Source: a virus (taxonomy: Duplodnaviria; Caudoviricetes). From it: DNA of 64,000 nucleotides. The first letter of the stretch is position 1. Each line of letters opens with the position of its first letter. The stretch lies in the IMG/VR virus record IMGVR_UViG_3300014204_000111, positions 156,862 through 220,861 of that record. One strand, 5' to 3'. The position numbers and the translations under genes were made by a program. Of this stretch, positions 2,190-61,081 are shown piece after piece. The notes under the pieces were generated by a model. That model was not told the DNA's origin. It searched no databases and was given only the letters and a program-made list of their open reading frames with translations.

Positions 2190-3448
2190 TGCAATTATTT
2201 AATGAAATTATTCAGGACTTAATCGGAGAACATGTATTTAATTGTTCTTGTGTTTCTGTGGAAACTAAGAAAACACTCATAACCTTATATTCAGATATGG
2301 TTGATAGCTTTGTAATGGGTGAACTTGGTAAATTTAAAATAACACAACAGATTTTTAAAGAATTTTTAAAAAATCAACTTCCCGAAGTTTTTGAAAAAGC
2401 TGACGCTCTTAGATTTGAAAGAGAAGCACAAGAAGATGTTGCTCAAATTATAAATAAATCTATTATTCAGCAGAAAATTCCTCAATTTGAACAAACACAT
2501 CAAGCATATTCTAAATGTTTATATATGAACCCATTTATTTTTGAAATGAAAGAAGGTTTTTACTTTAATAAACAAGGAGAACCATATATATATTTAGAAA
2601 TTCCTGATATTAAAGAACATATTCTCCATATAATAGATGATAGAAATAAATTTCCTAAAATTAAAGCAAGTTGGTTATTTTGTGATGATATAACTCCAGA
2701 ACTGGTACATAGATTTCATATGACAACTTATTCAATTGCGCTTATGATTAGGGACATTACGCATCATTTACAAGTAATGCATCCAGAAGATATTATTGCT
2801 AAACTATCTTCTGTGTTTATTCCAATTCCCCAAGGATTAAGTGTTTATTATCAAAATGAACAAGGACAATTATCTTTGCCATCATCACTTTACGCTACAG
2901 AATTAAAAGAAAGAGGTTTAGATAAAATTCCTTCGATTGGTGTATACGACCAATTAGTTAATGATAAAAATGCATTTTTTGATTTTATTAAACAAAACAA
3001 ATTAGCATCAGGTATTAAACTAGATTTAATTGGAGGAAGTTTATTTGGAGACTTTGGGTTATTAGGACACCCAAGTTATTTAGACCAAAAATTACCATAT
3101 ATTCATAATATACTATTACCTATGTTTTTAAATACTTATAAAAGAGAATCAATTAAACCTCAAATGTTACAAGCTCTAGAATCTAAATATCAAGAGTGTT
3201 TAGCAGAAATTCCGCCAGGATTACTAGAAAATGATAAAGTAGTATCTGTTCTTATCTCTTTATTACAAGAGGTTCAAGCTTTAGTTGTTTCTGGTGTAGG
3301 AGCAGCATTATATGCTATTACTCAGTATGGTGGATTTAACGAAATAACAGCAAGAATAGGTTTGTGTAGTAATACGACTTTATATGAATCTTTATCAGAT
3401 ACAGGAGTTAAAACACTATGTTATCTTAAAGGAGTAAGTCGTGATTAA
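2189..3448 (+). CDS. Hypothetical protein (419 aa) upstream of the prohead protease
   Basis: Long ORF, TAATG-coupled; no family recognised. Confidence 0.8.
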   Translation: MQLFNEIIQDLIGEHVFNCSCVSVETKKTLITLYSDMVDSFVMGELGKFKITQQIFKEFLKNQLPEVFEKADALRFEREAQEDVAQIINKSIIQQKIPQFEQTHQAYSKCLYMNPFIFEMKEGFYFNKQGEPYIYLEIPDIKEHILHIIDDRNKFPKIKASWLFCDDITPELVHRFHMTTYSIALMIRDITHHLQVMHPEDIIAKLSSVFIPIPQGLSVYYQNEQGQLSLPSSLYATELKERGLDKIPSIGVYDQLVNDKNAFFDFIKQNKLASGIKLDLIGGSLFGDFGLLGHPSYLDQKLPYIHNILLPMFLNTYKRESIKPQMLQALESKYQECLAEIPPGLLENDKVVSVLISLLQEVQALVVSGVGAALYAITQYGGFNEITARIGLCSNTTLYESLSDTGVKTLCYLKGVSRD

Positions 3449-4081: not shown

Positions 4082-6061
4082 ATGGCTAATAAAACCTTTA
4101 TAACTGGTGAAAATGTTAAAAGTCTTGTAAAGATGGAATATGACGGAGATGTTATCTTTGAAGGTATATTCGCATCTAATGATAGAGATATTCAAGGCGA
4201 TATTATTGATAAAACAATGCTTAAGCAAATGAATAATAATCTTAACACTGGTGCGCCTGTTTTCTTAAATCACTTTTATCATAGACCGGCTGTTGGTAAA
4301 GTTTTAAAATCAGAATATATGGAAGACCCAAATACAGGAAGAGCTTGGATTTGGGGGCGTGGTGTTGTTGATTCTGCTGATGCTGATTTTAAAAGACAAG
4401 TAGCAGATGGTAGATATAAATATATCTCGGTTGGTGGACATTTAGATGATTATGAAATGGAAAAGTCTGCCGATGGGAAATCTACTCGTCGTTGTAAAAG
4501 TGGAAAAGCTCTTGAGATATCTTTAACCGCAGTTCCTATTAATATATCTGCTGGTATGACATTAGCAAAAGGTCAAATTAACGATGAAATTACAGACCAA
4601 ATTATAGAAAATAATAACTTAATGAAAGCAATCTTCTCAATGGACGAGGATGAGCAAGGTAAATTAACTAAACTAAATTATCACGAAGTAGAATTTATCC
4701 CCATATCGGAGCAAAGTATGTTGCAAAAAGGTGAAGTTGGAGAATTCAAGAAGTTAGACGAAAAACCTAGCAAATCAAGTATTGAATTCGGACATGGTAC
4801 AAAAGTTGGAGAAGAAGACTTAGAAAAGTATTATAATCCAAAGGTTTCTGGCTTTATAACCAGCAAAGACGTAGACCCTCTTAATGTTTCTGACGAACAT
4901 TCTCAAGAATTCTTAAGCAAACATAAGACAAGTGTTATTGAATCAAATGAAAAACATGATGATTTTGGTTTTGTTGATAAAAACAGCGAATCTTTCTTAA
5001 ATAAAACTTCGATTTCTGACCCCGCTGCTCCTAACAAGTATGACCCAGGTAACTCTGTAGATAAAAATTCTAACTCTTGGATTCTTTCTCAGGCTAAAAC
5101 ATTTGTTTCTGGTTTAGATTCTATGCAAAAAGCAGTATTAGTTGATTTAATTTTCCACGATTTTAATACTGATAAATTATATGCAACATCTGGAGAAAGC
5201 CAGCCAAACGTCATTCACCGTTTATTACATCAAAAGAATTCTTATGCTAAAGCTGGTGGATTTTCTAATATTATTGGTCAAGAACTTACAGCATTATTAA
5301 AGTCTCTTGATTGGCGTAATTCTGATAACAATATGTATGATAGATTAGTATTAGACCATATTCTTGGCCCAAATCATATTGAAGAGGTAAAAGATTATTT
5401 AACTAAGTCTATGTATGGTTTTGCTGGAGACAAAGACCCTAATGAACCAGATGGCGATGAAATGGGACAAGACCCTTCAATGGGTGGTTCTCCTATGGGA
5501 CAAGACCCAAGTATGGGTGGAGCACCTATGGGACAAGACCCTTCAATGGGTGGAGCACCTGCAATGCCCGCTCCTGGTGCAGAAGGTACTGACCCAAGTA
5601 TGGGCGGTGGCGAAGACCCAACAATAGGCGCAGTTTCTCAAATTGTTGAAAAATATGCTCAGCAAGCAGGAATTGACCCCAATTCTATTCAACAACTATT
5701 ACAAGGTGGAGATGTAACTGGCGCAGCTAAGGCCGTTATTCAAGCATTACAGCAATCTAATCCTGACTTAGCTAATCAAATGTTAGATGAACTAAACCAA
5801 ACCCTACAGGGTGGTGGTTCTGAACAAGCAACACCTGGAGGTGGTGAAGCACCTGGCGCAGCTCCCCAATCAATGATGATGGGTAAATCAATTAATCCAG
5901 AAGAAGCTGTTGCTGCATATAGAGAAGCGAGAAAAGAACAGTTTACAAAGTCAAGAGTTTTCTCTGAACAACCTGCTCAATCTCGATATAATAGTAAACC
6001 AGCCAGCGGCGCTGACTTGGCAATGGCCTCTTGGATAGGTCAGTATAATATCGAAAGATAA
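4082..6061 (+). CDS. HK97-type prohead protease (peptidase S78/U35-like) fused to a long scaffold-like C-terminal region
   Basis: Motifs FEGIFAS..DRDIQGDII, PVFLNH (catalytic His), YISVGG (catalytic Ser), LEISLTAVPIN; lies directly upstream of the capsid gene. Start placed at ATG 4082 rather than GTG 4064, which overlaps the promoter motif. Confidence 0.88.
   Translation: MANKTFITGENVKSLVKMEYDGDVIFEGIFASNDRDIQGDIIDKTMLKQMNNNLNTGAPVFLNHFYHRPAVGKVLKSEYMEDPNTGRAWIWGRGVVDSADADFKRQVADGRYKYISVGGHLDDYEMEKSADGKSTRRCKSGKALEISLTAVPINISAGMTLAKGQINDEITDQIIENNNLMKAIFSMDEDEQGKLTKLNYHEVEFIPISEQSMLQKGEVGEFKKLDEKPSKSSIEFGHGTKVGEEDLEKYYNPKVSGFITSKDVDPLNVSDEHSQEFLSKHKTSVIESNEKHDDFGFVDKNSESFLNKTSISDPAAPNKYDPGNSVDKNSNSWILSQAKTFVSGLDSMQKAVLVDLIFHDFNTDKLYATSGESQPNVIHRLLHQKNSYAKAGGFSNIIGQELTALLKSLDWRNSDNNMYDRLVLDHILGPNHIEEVKDYLTKSMYGFAGDKDPNEPDGDEMGQDPSMGGSPMGQDPSMGGAPMGQDPSMGGAPAMPAPGAEGTDPSMGGGEDPTIGAVSQIVEKYAQQAGIDPNSIQQLLQGGDVTGAAKAVIQALQQSNPDLANQMLDELNQTLQGGGSEQATPGGGEAPGAAPQSMMMGKSINPEEAVAAYREARKEQFTKSRVFSEQPAQSRYNSKPASGADLAMASWIGQYNIER
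5462..5560 (+). repeat. Three tandem 33-bp coding repeats (MGQDPSMGG[S/A]P) with degenerate copies downstream
   Basis: ATGGGACAAGACCC...ATGGGTGG(TTCT/AGCA)CCT three times; GTDPSMGG and GEDPTIG follow at about 5585-5630. Confidence 0.9.
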
Positions 6062-6072
6062 GGAACTAAATA

Positions 6073-7353
6073 ATGAATCGTAGACAACCATTTGTGAAGA
6101 GCAATCAGAATTTCCAAAAAGCAGGAGATTTTCCTACTACATGGGGAGATTCAGGGAGTGTTCCCGCTGATTACCAAACAGTGTATAATCCTGGGCAAGG
6201 CTTTAACGTCTCTGCTCAAGTAGGAAGTCTTACAGCTCCTATTATTGGTAGCCCTGGTGTTATCAACTCAATCGGTGGTAGAGACTTCTTATCAATTGAT
6301 GTAACGCAAGAATATTTGCCTTATATCAACCAAGCGTCTTATTTGCGTAAGCACCACAGAGTCGTTCCTATGGACGGCCCAAGCAAGTATATTCCTAAGA
6401 TTGCTGGCCCAGCAAAAGTGTATGCAACTGGTGAAGGTCAGGTTATGAGTCAAACCGTAATCCCAACCACAACTGTTGCGTTGATTGCAAAAGCAATGGC
6501 AGTTTCTTTCGCAATTCCTCGTGAAATCGCGGATGACTCTATCATCAATTTGCTTCCTGCAATTAGAGAACACTTAGTTGACCGTTTCGTTCTTGCAGAA
6601 GAAGAAGCCTTCTTATTAGGTGATGAAAACACTTTCGCTGGTAGTGGTAGCGTTCGTTCTATGTTTAACGGATTGAGTGTCGGTGGTGAGTATAACTCCC
6701 TTGGCTCTTCAGATGTTATGGCAAATAACGGTGCTGAATTAATTAACGCCGCTGGAAACCCATTCTCAACTGAGCATGTTAACGAAGCTCTTGAGAAGTT
6801 GGACTTGCTAGGACAAAATCCTGACCATATTCTAGGTATTATTTCTCGTAAGCATGCAAGAACCCTACGTGGTGACTCTACGCTTTTACGTCAATTAACT
6901 AACTTTGGCCCAAGCCCAACCTTTAGAACTGGTCGTATAGGCCAAATCTTTGGTGTTAACTTGGTTCAAACTAACTTGTTGAATCCTAATGCGATGGTTC
7001 CAAGTGATGATGGTCAATGGTGGGGCTTCTTGGGCTTTGGTTCTGAAACTCCCGTTGAAATGACAACTCCTGGTGGAAATGACCCTGACCTTTTAAGTGA
7101 TTATGGTACTGGTAACAGAATCTATTCATATTATGGTTCAGAAGCTCTTGCTAAGGCGCATCAGACAACTCTTACTGAAGCTTTGTTTGTCCATAAGGAT
7201 AGCGCAGTTATCGGTGATAGACAGAAATTGGAAATCGAAATGTCTGCTCACACTCTATTAGCGGCTCGTTCGCTCTTGCTTGTGGCGCATGAGAGAATTG
7301 CATTTGCTTTACAATTACGTAGAGGTATTTGCAAGGTCATCCAGTTGGGTTGA
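6073..7353 (+). CDS. Major capsid protein (HK97 fold)
   Basis: Follows the protease; AAGGA RBS. HK97-like segments VYATGEG, IPREIADDSIINL..IREHL..RFVLAEEEAFLLGD, GQIFGVNLV, C-terminal ERIAFALQLRRGICKV. Strong terminator follows. Confidence 0.93.
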   Translation: MNRRQPFVKSNQNFQKAGDFPTTWGDSGSVPADYQTVYNPGQGFNVSAQVGSLTAPIIGSPGVINSIGGRDFLSIDVTQEYLPYINQASYLRKHHRVVPMDGPSKYIPKIAGPAKVYATGEGQVMSQTVIPTTTVALIAKAMAVSFAIPREIADDSIINLLPAIREHLVDRFVLAEEEAFLLGDENTFAGSGSVRSMFNGLSVGGEYNSLGSSDVMANNGAELINAAGNPFSTEHVNEALEKLDLLGQNPDHILGIISRKHARTLRGDSTLLRQLTNFGPSPTFRTGRIGQIFGVNLVQTNLLNPNAMVPSDDGQWWGFLGFGSETPVEMTTPGGNDPDLLSDYGTGNRIYSYYGSEALAKAHQTTLTEALFVHKDSAVIGDRQKLEIEMSAHTLLAARSLLLVAHERIAFALQLRRGICKVIQLG

Positions 7354-43330: not shown

Positions 43331-43687
43331 ATGCAAGAAGTGGAGTTTGAGGGAAGTAAGTATACTATTAAAACAGAGCCGATGACCATTGGAGACCTAA
43401 TGGACATGACGGCATATATGGATTATCTAAAATGGTACTCGCAACGACTATTGCCTGAGCAGGTTCCTTGTTCAGAAGATAGCAAAGAATTTTACGGACA
43501 AGTGGCAAGAGCCTTAGTTATTGTAAAAGCAGGATTAGCTCCTCCGGGGCATAGTAATATGAATCCTATGACTTTACTACAATTAAGAGGTAAGTTGCCT
43601 GAGTTTGTAAAATTTATTTGTCATCAATATGATATTTCCAAAGAACCTGCTTTGGCAACTACAGAAGAAGAAGCTAAAAAAAAATAG
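43331..43687 (+). CDS. Tail assembly chaperone (gpG-like)
   Basis: After the tube gene; ends EEEAKKK on an A9 slippery run. Confidence 0.8.
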   Translation: MQEVEFEGSKYTIKTEPMTIGDLMDMTAYMDYLKWYSQRLLPEQVPCSEDSKEFYGQVARALVIVKAGLAPPGHSNMNPMTLLQLRGKLPEFVKFICHQYDISKEPALATTEEEAKKK

Positions 43688-43908
43688 CAGAAAATCCTCA
43701 TCTTAAGGCTATTCTTGATTTGGGTTTTTATATGGGTGTGAATCCATTCGCACCAACTTTGCGTGAAACTCGTCAAGATTATTTCTTGCTCTTAACTGTT
43801 CATAGAGAGTACATGATTAATCAACGTAAAATTCAAGCTCAAATTGAGAAGGATAAAGCAGACGCAATTAATCAATTTCTTCCATCAAGAGGAGCGTTTA
43901 GAAGATAA
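43678..43908 (+). CDS. Tail assembly chaperone -1 frameshift extension (gpT-like)
   Basis: A AAA AAA heptamer at 43678-43684; the -1 frame is open as KKIAENPHLKAILDLGFYMGVNPF... to TAA at 43908. Confidence 0.8.
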   Translation, partial: KKIAENPHLKAILDLGFYMGVNPFAPTLRETRQDYFLLLTVHREYMINQRKIQAQIEKDKADAINQFLPSRGAFRR

Positions 43909-51006: not shown

Positions 51007-51749
51007 TGTTAGCAGGAAAACTAATAACACAATTGGATAAAAACTATAGAGTAAAAACTTTAGACTATATTGACTGTAGTACTATGTTGAATCCGTTTGA
51101 TATAAATAATACTAATGAAATGTTAATTCCAATAGATTTTCCTTACTCTCCAGAGGTTTATTCTGATATTACTGTATTTAAAACTCTTCCTACTCTTGAT
51201 ATTGAAAATGGATTAATCCAGATAGGCCAAGAATGGCTCTCCTACGCATACAGGGAGGCTGCTGGTGACTATATAAGACTGTATGTTGTGCAGAGGGCGC
51301 TTAAATGTACTTCGATGCAGGAACATAAACCAGGAACCTTTATTTATAAATTATCCACTATTATTGAAAAGAATTATGATAGCCAAAATATTAGAGATAT
51401 ACAATTAGATGAACGAAAAATTCATTTATCTCCTTCTAATCAGAAAATAGAAGATATTAGAGGTATAGATGTTATTCTTCAAGATGTGAAATTAACTATG
51501 ATTAATGCTGGTAATGAATTATTAAATTCTCAGTCTGATTATGAAACTTTATTTGATAAAAATTGGTTAACTGCATTCTATACAGAACAATTATTGAACA
51601 GTCCATTAGGTATAAGTCAAGTTAACATTATTGATATACAAAATCAGCAAGATAACCCTAACAAAATAGTAGTAGTAGCAGATGTATTTATTAATCACCA
51701 AATTTATTCTAATATACAAATTGTTCTTGGTTCAAAGAGAGGAATTTAA
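51006..51749 (+). CDS. Baseplate wedge / sheath initiator (gp25-like C-terminus) with an extra N-terminal module
   Basis: Before baseplate J; RDIQLD..IEDIRGIDVILQDVKL; extra GLIQIGQEWLSY...VQRALKCT...H..GT module. Confidence 0.55.
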   Translation: MLAGKLITQLDKNYRVKTLDYIDCSTMLNPFDINNTNEMLIPIDFPYSPEVYSDITVFKTLPTLDIENGLIQIGQEWLSYAYREAAGDYIRLYVVQRALKCTSMQEHKPGTFIYKLSTIIEKNYDSQNIRDIQLDERKIHLSPSNQKIEDIRGIDVILQDVKLTMINAGNELLNSQSDYETLFDKNWLTAFYTEQLLNSPLGISQVNIIDIQNQQDNPNKIVVVADVFINHQIYSNIQIVLGSKRGI

Positions 51750-53077
51750 TGACTTTTAACGAAATACTAAATTATTTTAGAGACTCAATAAGAGCTTTTT
51801 GTAATAAAAAATTAAATTTTTCAGAAAACTCTTTTGTTTATGGTCTAGGTCAAGCAGTGGCTTCTTTAGGTATTAAAATTATGGCTGCATTGGATAATAC
51901 TGAAACAAGAACATCACTTTTAACTGCTACAGGAGAGGATTTAGAAGCTATTTTTGCTAATTTCAAATTAACTAGAAAACAAGCTTCTACTGCTAAGGGA
52001 TTTATAAATATCTGGTTACTTTCATCAGATTTTGCAAATCAGACAGAACCTACCATTATTTATGCAGGTAGTTCCGTAGATGATAAGGATGGAAACTCTT
52101 TTATTGTAACCGAAACTTGTGTAATACCTAGCAAATTAGCTTATTATCCTAGCACATTAGTTAGTTCAATGACTACGAGAATGTATGCTATTCCACTTAA
52201 AAATAATACATTAGAATATTCTGAATCAGGGTCTTTAAATAGTATTAGAGAACAATTTATTGATTCTATAGAGATAGCTATTGAAAGTGAAAGTACTGGG
52301 GTACAAGCTAATACTCCAAGTTCTTATTTAACAACATACAGAGGCTCTTTACTTTACTGTAATAACAGAGAACCTATTACTGGTGGAACAGATATAGAAG
52401 ATGACGAATCCTTTAGATATAGAGGATTATCATTTATAAAAGGTGCTAATAGTAAATTTTCTTATTATAGTATTCAACATTTTTTATTATCCCAAGATAG
52501 CATATTAGATGCTAATATTATTGAAGATTATAATTGTTTATCATTTATCCCTCCAAGAGTGGGACATGTATATGCTATTATTAACACTACTTTATCTCCA
52601 GTATTAAGAGATACTTCTGAGCCTTATGTTGTAGATTCTCCACGAAATATTTATCAAAAAATCAGAAATTCTATTGAAACTGAAATGTATCGACCTTTAG
52701 GTATTGGTATTACAGTTAGAGAAGCTGATGTATTAAATGTAAATTTTAAATCTACCAGTGAAAATAATTTAAAAATATACATCAAATCTAACGCTATTAC
52801 ATCTATTAAAGAAACTGAACTAAAACAATTAATTTATGAATATTTTTTAAACACTAAAATAGGTCAAGATATTTATAAATCTGATATTTATAGTTTACTC
52901 AAAACAGATTCAGATGTAATAGATATTGAAGATTTTTCTTTTATGAGTGTGTATGGAGTAGATGTAAATGGAAATGAGTTATATAATACTGTTTCTGTTT
53001 TAACAGCATCTTGTAATCAAGTATATAGAATCAAAGCAGCGGATAATATTAATCTTGTTTGCTACAATTTGGAGTAA
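51749..53077 (+). CDS. Baseplate J-like wedge protein (gp6/gpJ)
   Basis: LLTATGEDL, LTRKQASTAKG, STGVQAN, NREPITGGTDIEDDESFRYR, RPLGIGITV. Confidence 0.9.
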   Translation: MTFNEILNYFRDSIRAFCNKKLNFSENSFVYGLGQAVASLGIKIMAALDNTETRTSLLTATGEDLEAIFANFKLTRKQASTAKGFINIWLLSSDFANQTEPTIIYAGSSVDDKDGNSFIVTETCVIPSKLAYYPSTLVSSMTTRMYAIPLKNNTLEYSESGSLNSIREQFIDSIEIAIESESTGVQANTPSSYLTTYRGSLLYCNNREPITGGTDIEDDESFRYRGLSFIKGANSKFSYYSIQHFLLSQDSILDANIIEDYNCLSFIPPRVGHVYAIINTTLSPVLRDTSEPYVVDSPRNIYQKIRNSIETEMYRPLGIGITVREADVLNVNFKSTSENNLKIYIKSNAITSIKETELKQLIYEYFLNTKIGQDIYKSDIYSLLKTDSDVIDIEDFSFMSVYGVDVNGNELYNTVSVLTASCNQVYRIKAADNINLVCYNLE

Positions 53078-56038: not shown

Positions 56039-57556
56039 ATGGCTCTTCTACAAAGTGATTTTTTAATTGTTAGACCAATTCGTACTAAATATGAAGATTA
56101 TCCGATTAGAGATATATCAAAAATTGGCTTACCTAATTTAAGTACTGATGGTGGAATGGTTTTCGATGCAAGTTTAGGTAACTGTTGGAGAAATACCTTA
56201 CCAGATGAAATACAAACTAGTGCAGTTACTGGAACTTATGCTTCAGAAGATTATGAACGCTATAATGATGATGGTTTAGCTCTTGATGCCTCTGAAAGAA
56301 TTACGTATCAAAACTTTGCTGATTATCATAAAATTTATGTTTTTAATAATGGATTAGAAAGTTTACCAGATGTAAGATTTACTGTCACTAGTACAACAAG
56401 AGTCTTGAACGATAATGCTTCTCCTATTTGGAAAACATATATAGCATTAGGACTTTCAGATGCTAGTGATTATACAGAAATAGAAACCCCAATTTATACT
56501 AGAGATTATTATCCTGATTTGACAGTTATAGGATTTCCAAGAATCAGTTCAAATGATACACCTGGAGAAGATACTATATTAGATGCCAAAGTAGCAAAAG
56601 ATATTATTTATGTGGGAAGAACCAGTTCTACTACTCCATATGATGCACCGAGAGGCCCACATAAGATAGTTAGAAAAATTGAGTCAGACTATAATCTATA
56701 TGCAGAACGTAAATATTTAAAAGCTACAGCAACAAATATTACAACAATTTTAGCAGATGTAGATATTTATGTCTTTGGAGAAACTAACTCTCAAATAGTT
56801 GTGGGTATATGTACATCAACTGGTGATTTTAAATTAGCTGATGATGGAGTTTCGCCTGTTTCATTCCATAAAATTTATGGTATATTTTGTGTAGATAAAA
56901 CTCCTGGCTATGATATTACTTGCTGGAATGATTTTACAGAAGAAACTCTTTCAGCTCCTCCACAAGACGTAACAATTCAGTGGAAGTTGGTTAGTGGCAC
57001 TGTTTGGACAGATTGGGTTGTAATTAAAACTACTAATAAATTTAGTTTAACATTTTTTGATGAAGAGATTCTAGACCACGGACGTACACAAGCACTATGT
57101 CTTAGCCCAAGTCCTAAAGTAACAGATTTTATACAATCTACAACCTTATTACATACTCTGGCTAATTCAAGTTTAACTCCTATTGTAAATGATAGTACAG
57201 GTCTCTTCACTCTTCAAGAGGATACTAATTATGGTCTTGTAGAATTTGATTCTCCTGGTAGTGATTTAACATCAGTCTCTTTAGCTGATAGAGTAGTGGG
57301 AGTTGACGTAGACGGAGTTATATATGATTTAGGATATATAGTAGAACTTAATACTACTCCTTCTGACGGTCTTGGTATTACTGTTTCTAATTTTGATACT
57401 AGTTTAACAACACTCAGTTGTACTGTTCAAATCTATAGTACTAAATATTCTCGTGCAGCGTTTTGGTTTAGAAGAGAAATTGCTTGTCAAGTTGATGTTG
57501 TTCCAACTACTGAAGTTGATATGCAATGGATGCTGTACGGATTGAGAGGTCTATAA
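56039..57556 (+). CDS. Putative tail or baseplate-associated structural protein (505 aa)
   Basis: Acidic, Thr-rich, beta-type sequence; YHKIYVFNN and AFWFRR motifs; end of the tail module. Confidence 0.6.
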   Translation: MALLQSDFLIVRPIRTKYEDYPIRDISKIGLPNLSTDGGMVFDASLGNCWRNTLPDEIQTSAVTGTYASEDYERYNDDGLALDASERITYQNFADYHKIYVFNNGLESLPDVRFTVTSTTRVLNDNASPIWKTYIALGLSDASDYTEIETPIYTRDYYPDLTVIGFPRISSNDTPGEDTILDAKVAKDIIYVGRTSSTTPYDAPRGPHKIVRKIESDYNLYAERKYLKATATNITTILADVDIYVFGETNSQIVVGICTSTGDFKLADDGVSPVSFHKIYGIFCVDKTPGYDITCWNDFTEETLSAPPQDVTIQWKLVSGTVWTDWVVIKTTNKFSLTFFDEEILDHGRTQALCLSPSPKVTDFIQSTTLLHTLANSSLTPIVNDSTGLFTLQEDTNYGLVEFDSPGSDLTSVSLADRVVGVDVDGVIYDLGYIVELNTTPSDGLGITVSNFDTSLTTLSCTVQIYSTKYSRAAFWFRREIACQVDVVPTTEVDMQWMLYGLRGL

Positions 57557-57831
57557 TGGTAGAAGATAAAAATACACGATTTCGTATAACTGTTTTAATT
57601 ACCAAAATTGTATTTGTATTACTTATTTTATCTCTTTTAATTGACATAGCAAATGGATTATTTCCGTTACTTATAGGAGGAGCTGCCTTTATTAAATTTG
57701 GTGAATTTACATTATTAATTGCTGGTGTATTTATAGCCAAAATGGGAGCTGCTATTGAATCTTATTTTGATACAAAAAGACAGGAAGATAAAGAAAGAGA
57801 CATAAAAATTGCAGTAGATGGTAAAAAATAA
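57556..57831 (+). CDS. Small two-TM membrane protein, probable holin
   Basis: TAATG-coupled with GAGAGG upstream; two hydrophobic stretches and a highly charged C-terminus. Confidence 0.55.
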   Translation: MVEDKNTRFRITVLITKIVFVLLILSLLIDIANGLFPLLIGGAAFIKFGEFTLLIAGVFIAKMGAAIESYFDTKRQEDKERDIKIAVDGKK

Positions 57832-58100: not shown

Positions 58101-59129
58101 ATGGCAGATACAATTTATAGTGCAACTACAACTACCAAAGCTGGACTGTTAGCCGCAATAAATGATAGAATTGATGCTCTTACTAAATGGACAGCAAGTA
58201 CTGGTGGAAATACAGCTAGTATTGCTAATACAGACCATACTCAAATGATGTTACAAATAACTTATGCATCAGCTTCAGATACTATTTTATTTGCTATGCA
58301 TGATGGTACTGGTTATACGAAAGAAGCAACTATGACTTTCTCTAATGCTGGAGTAAGTTCTCAAGTAGTTAATCTATACTCATTAGTTAATGATGATAGA
58401 TTAATATTTGTTATTAGTACCAAAGATGCTAACAATATTTATACCAATAATATGTTTTACTTTGGTAGAATTGCAGCTTTTGATGCAGATGATAAACATG
58501 CTTGGGGACTCTATGTTTCTGGTGCTCCTGAATTGATGGGTAAAAACTTCACTAATTTAGGTATCGGATATGGAGTTTTAGAATGTATGTATATTAGAGC
58601 AGTCACTAGATTTTCTAATGATGCTGATGAACCTATTAGTATCATGGGCAGCGATTACGCTAAACGCTCTACAGTAGTAACTCCGTTTACATTTATGGAT
58701 ATGGAAGGATACGATGGGGCAGAGTACGGTTATAATGCTGAGGGATTAAAAACAAATATCTTAACTGGTACTCCTACTTTTGGTGGCCCTAATTTACGTG
58801 ATATTTTTGAAGAAGAAAAATATCTTGCCTCAAGAGTTATTCGTATAGGTGTTTATAAAGAATTTGATGGTAGAGACGGTTTTGGTATGAAGGGTACAAT
58901 GGACGGACTTTATCATGTTAAGAATACTTGGAGCCAAGATTCAAATAAATTAACAGTACCTAAAACTAAGGGTATGGCTCCTACAACAGTGTCTATTCTT
59001 GTTTCATCTAGAGGCGCTGGCTTTTTGGGTTCTACAACTAATTGGTTAGTAGTTCCTTTATCTAATAGAAGTAATACTTTCTATATTTATAATGGTCTTA
59101 ATGTAATCGCTATTCCTCAATTGTCATAA
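58101..59129 (+). CDS. Putative virion structural protein (342 aa)
   Basis: AAGGA RBS; N-terminus (T..LLAAI...L..WT) and G/T-rich beta composition resemble tail-associated proteins. Confidence 0.6.
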   Translation: MADTIYSATTTTKAGLLAAINDRIDALTKWTASTGGNTASIANTDHTQMMLQITYASASDTILFAMHDGTGYTKEATMTFSNAGVSSQVVNLYSLVNDDRLIFVISTKDANNIYTNNMFYFGRIAAFDADDKHAWGLYVSGAPELMGKNFTNLGIGYGVLECMYIRAVTRFSNDADEPISIMGSDYAKRSTVVTPFTFMDMEGYDGAEYGYNAEGLKTNILTGTPTFGGPNLRDIFEEEKYLASRVIRIGVYKEFDGRDGFGMKGTMDGLYHVKNTWSQDSNKLTVPKTKGMAPTTVSILVSSRGAGFLGSTTNWLVVPLSNRSNTFYIYNGLNVIAIPQLS

Positions 59130-59139
59130 AGAGAAAAGA

Positions 59140-60498
59140 ATGAATAAATATATCACCGCTGAAGAGTTATTGCGCGCAACTGAAAAGAAAGTAGAAGATA
59201 AATTTGCTGCGGCTGCTCAATCTTGCTTTCCTCGCAAAGTTACACTCCAAAAAGCTGTAGAGATTGAAAGAGATATTGTAGTTGATAATTCTATTGAAGA
59301 TGTTATTAATTTTACTCGCTCGATGGCATCTCCTCTATCAGAGGCAGATATGTTCCATTTCATCTCTTTTGGTTCTGATTCACAGAGAAAAGCTAACACT
59401 ATTGTATCCGCACAGGCTAATACATTTAGTCCTGAAGAAAGAAGAAAACAATTAGCTCTTCTTCTTGCTAAAGCAGACCAATATCCAGACCATATTAATT
59501 CTAGAGAACAGTTAATTCTTAAAGATATTAATAAAAATATTATAGAAATTCTCGAAGGTAATATGAATAGAACGAGCCTCAATTCTTTTGTTGATAAAGC
59601 CCAAAGATTCTTCACTGGTAAGGCTACTGCTGAAGATTTACAAGGTGAAACAATTAGATTTGCAGGCTCTTTTTCTAAGAGTATGGATTCTATGATGGAA
59701 CAAGTTTCAACTCTAACAGATGATGAAGCTGAATTTCTAAAGAGTGTTGTTTTGGAAGCTGCTGAAGATGCAGTCTGGGGGCCATATGGACATCTTTTGG
59801 CTGGAATTGACCTCCCAAAAGCCCCATTAGCCAATGATTTTGGCACAAATTCTTATGTTGGCCCTGTCGCTGGCGTTCAACGTCATCCTCAACAATGGCC
59901 TACTCAAAAAGAGAATCCTATGACTGATTCTATGGGGGTGCATGGTCTAATGATGCACGACTCTATAGTTGCTAATTCTCCTAAAATGGGAATGACTAAT
60001 CATATTAGTACAAAACCTAGTAATTCTCCAATTGGTAATCAACCTACTCAGTATTTTAACACTCCTCTTGGTGCAGGTGGAGATAAGTCTTTTAATGCTA
60101 CAGACCCAGCAATGATTGATAGTATGAATCAAGCAGGTGGTTATCCTGGTGCTCAAGCTGTTGACCAAGCTGCTCATCCTATTACACAAGAAGGAATGGG
60201 ACATGGTGGAGAACCTCCTAGAGTTGGTTCTTTTGGTTTTAATGGTGCAGGTGGAGACGAAGATGATTTAGGTGGACAAGCGGAGCAAATTTTTGCTCAA
60301 TTAGATGCCCTAACTCAAGCACAACATGGTGGAGAAGCTTCAATGGCTTCTGAAAGCGGAATGGGAACTGTAACAGGTTCTTTTGGACATGATGGAGATA
60401 AACATTGCGGAGATAAGTTTTCAATGTATAAATCTCTTCTTTTGGAGGATGAGCAAAGCTCCCCTTTTCCAAGGGAATTGGTAGAAACGAAGAAGTAG
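59140..60498 (+). CDS. Probable head-internal, protease-processed protein; short product of a -1 frameshifted gene
   Basis: Many hydrophobic-x-K-[SA] motifs (LQKA, LAKA, FSKS, FLKS, MYKS); G/P/Q/M low-complexity C-half with HGG motifs. Confidence 0.7.
   Translation: MNKYITAEELLRATEKKVEDKFAAAAQSCFPRKVTLQKAVEIERDIVVDNSIEDVINFTRSMASPLSEADMFHFISFGSDSQRKANTIVSAQANTFSPEERRKQLALLLAKADQYPDHINSREQLILKDINKNIIEILEGNMNRTSLNSFVDKAQRFFTGKATAEDLQGETIRFAGSFSKSMDSMMEQVSTLTDDEAEFLKSVVLEAAEDAVWGPYGHLLAGIDLPKAPLANDFGTNSYVGPVAGVQRHPQQWPTQKENPMTDSMGVHGLMMHDSIVANSPKMGMTNHISTKPSNSPIGNQPTQYFNTPLGAGGDKSFNATDPAMIDSMNQAGGYPGAQAVDQAAHPITQEGMGHGGEPPRVGSFGFNGAGGDEDDLGGQAEQIFAQLDALTQAQHGGEASMASESGMGTVTGSFGHDGDKHCGDKFSMYKSLLLEDEQSSPFPRELVETKK
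60444..60468 (+). other. Candidate programmed -1 frameshift signal: internal SD GGAGG plus slippery heptamer C CCT TTT
   Basis: GGAGG at 60444-60448, 13-nt spacer, in-frame X XXY YYZ heptamer at 60462-60468; the -1 frame is open to 61022. Confidence 0.7.
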
Positions 60499-61022
60499 GA
60501 TTATTACAACATGGTGGGCCAGACCCAGGCGAAGAAAATGAAGAGCATGGAGGAATTAGACCTAATATTAAAATGCCATTATCTCAACAATTAAGTCCAG
60601 AAGAAGAACAAGCTGTTTATAATCATCATACAAATATGATGAAAGTGCTAAGTGCAAATAATAAAAATGACCCTAATTCTTTGAATTATTTTGAAGGTAA
60701 ATTAAATGAATTGGCTAATCATCATGGTTCTGAGGTTGTTGGAGATGCATGGCAAGAAGGAAATTTACTTCCATTAATGAAGAGACACCCTACTTATATT
60801 CCCAATCTTTTAGCAGAAGTTAAGAGACAAAAAAGTCCTAGTCAACAACAATTGCCATTTGGTCATGGAGGAATTAAATTAGATAAAAATAATGGTTATT
60901 TATCTAACGGAAATTATAATCCACCTACACCAAAAGAAGAAAAGAAAGAAGAATTTAAACCACAACCAGAATTACCTGCTGATGTCAATATAAACAACTG
61001 GGATAAACCCAGAACTAAATAA
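60462..61022 (+). CDS. -1 frameshift extension of 59140..60498 (includes the supplied ORF 60573..61022)
   Basis: Reads PFSKGIGRNEEVGLLQHGGPDPGEENEEHGGIRPNIKMPLSQQL...; same motifs as the zero-frame part. ATG 60573 lacks a well-spaced SD. Confidence 0.68.
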   Translation, partial: PFSKGIGRNEEVGLLQHGGPDPGEENEEHGGIRPNIKMPLSQQLSPEEEQAVYNHHTNMMKVLSANNKNDPNSLNYFEGKLNELANHHGSEVVGDAWQEGNLLPLMKRHPTYIPNLLAEVKRQKSPSQQQLPFGHGGIKLDKNNGYLSNGNYNPPTPKEEKKEEFKPQPELPADVNINNWDKPRTK

Positions 61023-61050: not shown

Positions 61051-61075
61051 TGCCGCCGTGATGGGCGGCATTTTT
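61051..61075 (+). terminator. Rho-independent terminator ending the + strand structural unit
   Basis: TGCCGCC-GTGATG-GGCGGCA-TTTTT. Confidence 0.85.
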
Positions 61076-61081
61076 GTAAAT

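Follow-up and report, generated by a model that had tools for sequence, protein, structure and literature searches.

A phage gene family probably decoded by programmed -1 ribosomal frameshifting, with slip sites that differ in position between relatives

Positions 59140-61022 of the window (the whole stretch of DNA that was analysed, 64,000 nucleotides, which forms the final 64 kb of IMG/VR record IMGVR_UViG_3300014204_000111) are probably a single gene decoded by programmed -1 ribosomal frameshifting at the slippery heptamer C CCT TTT. This reading, which was that of the original prediction, is supported by coding in a stretch that lacks start codons and by -1 breaks at heptamers of the same class in relatives. 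The mechanism is one already known, namely bacterial tandem slippage with a Shine-Dalgarno (SD) stimulator, as in dnaX; what is new is the gene family itself, the wandering of the site among orthologues and, in one relative (L002), two apparent successive -1 shifts in a phage gene. Here, we describe the site and its coding context, then its counterparts in relatives, the elements that may stimulate the shift and the known systems that it resembles.

The record is 220,861 bp long, has direct terminal repeats, is rated complete and has a GC content of 31.7%. The region holding the gene is a plus-strand late structural operon, and a KpsS-like Capsule_synth gene on the opposite strand converges on the gene. 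The surroundings are as follows:

51749-53077, plus strand: Baseplate_J gene, after which come large fibre-like ORFs
57526-57831, plus strand: 101-aa ORF, a small membrane protein with two or three hydrophobic helices, preceding the 66-aa ORF
between 57526-57831 and 58101-59129, plus strand: 66-aa ORF, coiled-coil-like
58101-59129, plus strand: 342-aa protein, conserved in relatives, the immediate upstream neighbour of 59140-61022
61051-61078, plus strand: intrinsic terminator closing the operon, from a terminator search

No terminator was found between the zero frame and the -1 frame of 59140-61022. The order of the 101-aa and 66-aa ORFs upstream of the 342-aa protein is kept in relatives (102 aa and 69 aa in L003). 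The two frames of the gene and the elements at their junction are these:

59140..60498, plus strand: zero-frame ORF of 452 aa, with its stop TAG at 60496-60498
60444..60448, plus strand: internal SD-like GGAGG, a candidate stimulator, 13 nt 5' of the heptamer
60453..60498, plus strand: 46-nt overlap in which the frame must change, from the last upstream -1-frame stop to the zero-frame stop
60462..60468, plus strand: slippery heptamer C CCT TTT, its first C in the third codon position (tcC CCT TTT)
60468..61022, plus strand: -1-frame extension of 184 codons plus TAA, with three HGG motifs
60573..60575, plus strand: first ATG of the -1 frame, an alternative independent start, the sole SD-like sequence of which (GGAGGA) ends 18 nt upstream

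Read in the zero frame the site is ...ttg gag gat gag caa agc tcC CCT TTT cca..., and the TAG comes after nine more sense codons. In the -1 frame a TGA lies at 60450-60452, the reading is open from 60453 and the TAA at 61020-61022 ends it, and the overlap contains just one in-frame X XXY YYZ heptamer. The original prediction had described an in-frame heptamer nine codons before the stop of 59140..60498, a -1 frame opening after that TGA and running to 61022, a GGAGG followed by 13 nt and C CCT TTT, an FSKG created at once by the shift and three more HGG motifs in the extension, and all of these were found as described. The shifted reading would be ...SSPF-SKGIGRNEE..., giving a transframe product of 443 + 184 = 627 aa.

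In-frame X XXY YYZ heptamers occur 479 times in the 61,690 codons of the 220,861-bp genome (0.78% of codons). The -1 frame remains open after them for a median of 4 codons, with a 95th percentile of 25, and the 184 open codons after 60462-60468 are the second longest such run among the 479. The pattern GGAGG-N8-16-CCCTTTY has an expected count of 0.05 per window. Five further in-frame C CCT TTY heptamers lie inside ordinary genes of the genome, and thus the motif alone is no marker of recoding.

The stretch that immediately follows the heptamer (60468-60572) is coding in character. Its 35 codons include no ATG, GTG or TTG and score 0.81 bits per codon, using codon-usage log-odds trained on the phage's other genes, against averages of 0.66 in frame and -0.93 off frame over windows of 35 codons. 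None of the off-frame 35-codon windows in the genome's predicted genes reaches 0.81, and in its remaining two frames the stretch itself scores -0.45 and -1.10. The motif HGG, with just 12 copies among the 61,690 predicted residues (0.19 per 1000 aa), is found twice in the last 90 residues before the shift and twice in the 35 start-less codons after it, so the motif array continues straight across the junction. Six of the genome's 12 HGG motifs are in one 1976-aa protein (genome C1 145137-151064, outside the window).

Such a stretch is hard to accommodate if there are two separate genes, the second encoding a 149-aa protein from ATG 60573 through its own initiation or re-initiation after the TAG, and the upstream open frame being a relic. 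The ORF 60573-61022 does start with an ATG, and gene callers split the relatives likewise, but the 35 upstream codons are stop-free and coding-like with their two HGG motifs, and the closest SD-like sequence stops 18 nt short of the ATG where 5-9 nt is usual, an 18-nt distance being seen in 2 of the 121 phage genes that have such a motif. We therefore regard separate genes as improbable, and the relatives described below add to the case against them.

Homologues of the gene are distant. Searching the phage collection with 59140-61022 at the DNA and protein level gave no matches, and IMG/VR, scanned with each of the two ORFs, the upstream neighbour, an alignment of that neighbour or P0006, returned nothing except the phage itself. 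A HMMER search of 1.8 billion representatives recovered four homologues, all short (E 6e-15 to 1e-4) and matching residues 1 to ~220 only; this N-domain gives an alignment too variable to serve for a pattern scan. The relatives compared here are the contigs of these four homologues together with one found via the conserved 342-aa neighbour (n=5, from other metagenomes), and four of the five (L002, L003, L004 and L006) provide DNA across a junction. Their syntenic order is the 342-aa neighbour, the homologue and a convergent Capsule_synth gene. The homologues are broken into pieces, each in the -1 frame relative to the one before, and every short overlap contains a phased slippery heptamer; the breaks fall at one or both of two places, boundary 1 after the N-domain and boundary 2 at ~residue 440-500:

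Window: boundary 1 in frame, ctC CCA AAA; boundary 2 C CCT TTT with GGAGG 13 nt upstream
L002: boundary 1 C CCT TTC TAA (6437-6446) with a hairpin; boundary 2 C CCT TTT TAA (7078-7087) in a 13-nt overlap
L004: boundary 1 C CCT TTC GAG TAA (6633-6645) with a G-rich SD-like stretch upstream; boundary 2 in frame
L006: boundary 1 in frame, Pro-Phe being CCA TTT; boundary 2 A AAT TTT (4503-4509) with a 12-bp hairpin
L003: boundary 1 A AAA AAA AAC (an A9 run); the contig ends before boundary 2

Conservation of the heptamer in relatives had been put forward in the original prediction as a check, and it speaks for the frameshift, with five junctions in four relatives each having an in-frame slippery heptamer of varied sequence. 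All six junctions, the window's included, are -1 and have phased heptamers, five of them of the H_HH.U_UU.Y class, with C CCT TTY at three of the junctions in relatives. By our own arithmetic, taking heptamers at 0.78% of codons, the probability of one falling by chance in all six overlaps (4-18 codons) is ~1e-6. The position of the break shifts between orthologues yet always coincides with a heptamer, and the composite lengths are alike at 627, 653 and 607 aa. The C-terminal part of L004, which is in frame, and the post-shift ORF of L006 are homologous (E 3e-7), which means that pieces joined by a shift in one phage form one polypeptide in another. L005, a contig from another sample, carries the in-frame part of L006 in identical form.

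These comparisons bear again on the reading as two genes, as the -1 frames of the relatives open 19-75 codons before any start, that of L006 having no ATG for 180 codons, and the break moves relative to the homologous domains. In L002 (5772-7731) two successive -1 shifts are needed to read one 653-aa protein, and its two sites would imply products nested in three sizes, namely 224, about 440 and 653 aa. The second L002 junction looks homologous in position to that of the window: the sequence ...KSLLLEDEQSSPF, which leads up to the window's junction, is similar to ...KSMLVDEYSRPF ahead of the L002 junction, at an equal distance from the N-terminus (~residue 440). BLASTP of the window's C-terminal parts against L002, L004 and L006 gave no significant similarity, these regions being too fast-evolving for significant alignment with the window, and so the apparent homology of the two sites rests on the ~12-residue match and the equal N-terminal distance.

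If one base had been deleted from the C4 or T4 run, whether through a sequencing or assembly error or through a recent inactivating mutation, the same DNA would be a broken version of a single 627-aa ORF or a pseudogene. Loss of a C or T from CCCCTTTT gives a protein identical to that of a -1 slip, so sequence alone cannot separate the two. Frame breaks of other kinds are also present, as the genome has a second one at an A10 run (1044-1053) and L003 carries a +1-type break in the N-domain (3170-3185), where its N-terminal 30 codons are in a +1-related frame near aat tcc tcc caa; this resembles the outcome of an indel error or a mutation more than that of recoding, and some breaks in the family may not be programmed. 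At the window's junction we nevertheless give a deletion little chance. Four-base runs are not error-prone, and longer A/T runs number in the hundreds in the genome; four junctions in three other independently assembled phages also have a -1 break at a heptamer of the window's class, and the split of L004 into 214-aa and 364-aa genes, 84 nt apart, was called again in a second sequencing run. Word-index protein searches found the window's own protein and two known relatives only, and no full-length in-frame form. In-frame relatives, moreover, avoid slippery codons at boundary 1, the Pro-Phe of L006 there being the non-slippery CCA TTT. Transcriptional slippage, in which RNA polymerase would add or drop a base in the C4 or T4 run and the long product would come from the shifted mRNA, is very improbable: its product would be identical and it is plausible at the A9 and A10 runs of L003 and 1044, but productive polymerase slippage requires ~7 or more identical bases in a run and the runs here are of only 4, the X XXY YYZ phasing kept at all six junctions matters to ribosomes and not to polymerase, and SD-like or hairpin stimulators are placed at ribosomal distances.

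Returning to programmed frameshifting, a stimulator would be expected either as an SD-like sequence 10-14 nt upstream of the heptamer or as a structure 4-9 nt downstream, and the position of GGAGG falls within the first of these ranges. Its duplex with the 16S 3' end (anti-SD) is predicted at -9.3 kcal/mol, a value matched by only 2.1% of gene positions. Downstream of the window's site no convincing hairpin or pseudoknot was found (z -0.8), and an Rfam search at the slip site gave nothing real. Across the family the candidate stimulators are complementary, being either SD-like upstream or a hairpin downstream. Where a hairpin is absent, the anti-SD duplexes are -9.3 (window), -11.0 (L004) and a weaker -4.9 (L002 site 2) kcal/mol; where an SD-like stretch is absent, L002 site 1 has a hairpin of -15.5 kcal/mol 5 nt downstream and the L006 site a 12-bp hairpin of -19.5 kcal/mol (z -3.1) 4 nt downstream. 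It is thus plausible that GGAGG stimulates shifting in the window, given that the phage's own genes use SD-type initiation (G enrichment at -12..-7, typical spacing 5-9 nt), that the duplex reaches -9.3 kcal/mol and that relatives without an SD-like stretch have hairpins. The sequence of the element is not kept at the apparently homologous L002 site, which has GGTGG. In three of the four C CCT TTY sites the zero-frame stop lies zero or one codon past the heptamer, and this fits the 'shifty stop' effect reportedly described by Weiss et al. in 1987.

The proposed course of events would begin with a ribosome at tcC CCU UUU, its P site holding tRNA-Pro paired to CCU and its A site tRNA-Phe paired to UUU, while the 16S anti-SD pairs with the GGAGG 13 nt upstream and probably leaves the ribosome paused or strained. 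In a fraction of ribosomes both tRNAs would slip back by one base onto CCC UUU (CCU to CCC, UUU to UUU). Among its 20 tRNA genes (genome C1 53912-103583, outside the window) the phage has tRNA-Pro(UGG) and tRNA-Phe(GAA), the pair that would slip at C CCU UUU, and both are compatible with re-pairing. We infer that the slippage takes place on the ribosome, where shifted ribosomes would read 184 more codons in the -1 frame to give the 627-aa protein and unshifted ribosomes would stop at TAG 60496 to give the 452-aa protein. Both products would contain the helical N-domain and the greater part of the low-complexity region, with the C-terminal module as the difference between them, and the ratio of short to long product would be fixed by the efficiency of the shift. 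Heptamers of the form H_HH.U_UU.Y count among the most efficient -1 motifs of E. coli, and C_CC.U_UU.C was singled out as a high-level frameshifter (Sharma et al., PMC4066793).

A close mechanistic parallel is E. coli dnaX (A AAA AAG), where an internal SD-like sequence 10-14 nt upstream stimulates the -1 shift (Larsen 1994, as cited in PMC4066793). The likeness lies in the in-frame tandem-slippage heptamer, the upstream SD-like sequence and two products with a common N-terminus. However, dnaX has a downstream hairpin and the window's site, with its C CCU UUU, has none; the dnaX shift truncates its product whereas that of the window would lengthen it by 184 residues; and the genes are unrelated. 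Assignment as a dnaX-type frameshift was rejected on the absence of a Pfam or PHROG family, the different heptamer and the missing hairpin.

Among virion proteins, the T3 coat protein, the major head and tail proteins of Lactobacillus phage A2 and proteins of Listeria phages A118/A500 acquire C-terminal extensions by -1 frameshifting (PMC5009743). These resemble the window gene in belonging to late operons, in having the slip site in the last codons and in adding a C-terminal module to the minority product. In contrast to them, the window protein is not recognisable as a capsid or tail-tube protein, its extension is not Ig-like, and its relatives hold one or two sites at differing domain boundaries. 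The G/GT-type frameshift of phage tail assembly chaperones, reportedly described by Xu, Hendrix and Duda in 2004, shares with the window gene a -1 slip that is retained among widely diverged phages, heptamers that vary, and a short product nested within a long one. Unlike it, the window gene lies after the baseplate and fibre genes and not between tube and tape measure, is far longer (452/627 aa) and has no sequence relation. Identity with a tail assembly chaperone was likewise rejected, as the slot upstream of the tape measure is taken by 43331-43687 with its -1 extension and the gene lies 15 kb downstream, past Baseplate_J.

That canonical tail-assembly-chaperone frameshift occupies window positions 43331-43907, and insofar as it sits at 43676-43907 the original prediction was right to speak of a 'non-chaperone gene' at 59140-61022. 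Its 118-aa ORF (43331-43687) ends gct AAA AAA AAA TAG, with the slip A AAA AAA and TAG at 43676-43687; the -1 frame continues for 74 more codons to 43907, and the TAA of the extension overlaps the start codon (ATG, at 43908) of the 'tape measure slot' gene.

Outside bacteria, some retroviruses make two successive -1 frameshifts in gag-pro-pol (PMC5009743), and C CCU UUU is the slippery heptamer of West Nile virus (PMC11797035). The need of L002 for two successive -1 shifts in one gene recalls the former, but the retroviral and West Nile virus systems are eukaryotic and driven by pseudoknots, whereas here a bacterial ribosome would meet SD-like sequences, simple hairpins or an adjacent stop. 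To our knowledge, two successive -1 shifts in one gene are known from retroviruses and not from phages. Apart from those in tail chaperones, transposases and dnaX, we know of few -1 frameshifts of the bacterial type that are conserved, and the present case would add to them an uncharacterised gene family of large uncultured phages. The family forms a natural series for testing trade-offs between heptamer, SD spacing, hairpin and stop codon, and it illustrates how such genes get divided by gene callers into two or three 'hypothetical proteins'.

The product of 59140..60498 consists of an N-terminal all-alpha domain of ~220 aa followed by a low-complexity region rich in Gly, Pro, Gln and His. 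Searches of Pfam and PHROGs gave sub-threshold matches only and no family. The AF2 model of the N-domain is entirely helical (pLDDT 61), and Foldseek of this model against the PDB returned no match; the model of the 342-aa upstream neighbour (pLDDT 44) was too poor for use. The gene keeps its place right behind the conserved 342-aa protein, where the fibre region ends, which suggests that its product may act in morphogenesis or be associated with the virion, maybe in virion or tail-fibre assembly.

A broader and distinctly more speculative idea, which we think unlikely, is that movable -1 sites at domain boundaries dose nested isoforms (the N-domain alone, N-domain plus middle, and full length) in fixed ratios. 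Were it true, different phages would put one or two sites at different boundaries, L002 would make three isoforms and the window too would make three products. The window does contain, at 59814-59820, an in-frame ctC CCA AAA exactly at the relatives' first frameshift place at the end of the N-domain. The -1 frame stops five codons past it, and a shift there would give a ~232-aa product of the N-domain only, so this heptamer could be either a vestige or a second recoding site with dnaX-like truncation.

Two other places in the genome have comparable frame arrangements. The ORF at 179-1060 ends just past the A10 run at 1044-1053, and the +1 frame, open from 1011 to 2189, has two HGG motifs; the break could stem from an error in the homopolymer, from slippage of the polymerase or from a +1/-2 shift. 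The proposal that 179-2189 is a paralogue of 59140-61022 was not supported, with BLASTP E values of 0.036 and 0.086 and a probability of 0.2% in profile comparison. Finally, the gene at genome C1 50754-51605 (outside the window) has an in-frame C CCA AAG 14 codons before its stop, followed by a 107-codon open -1 frame, which is possibly a recoding site or merely an overlapping neighbour.
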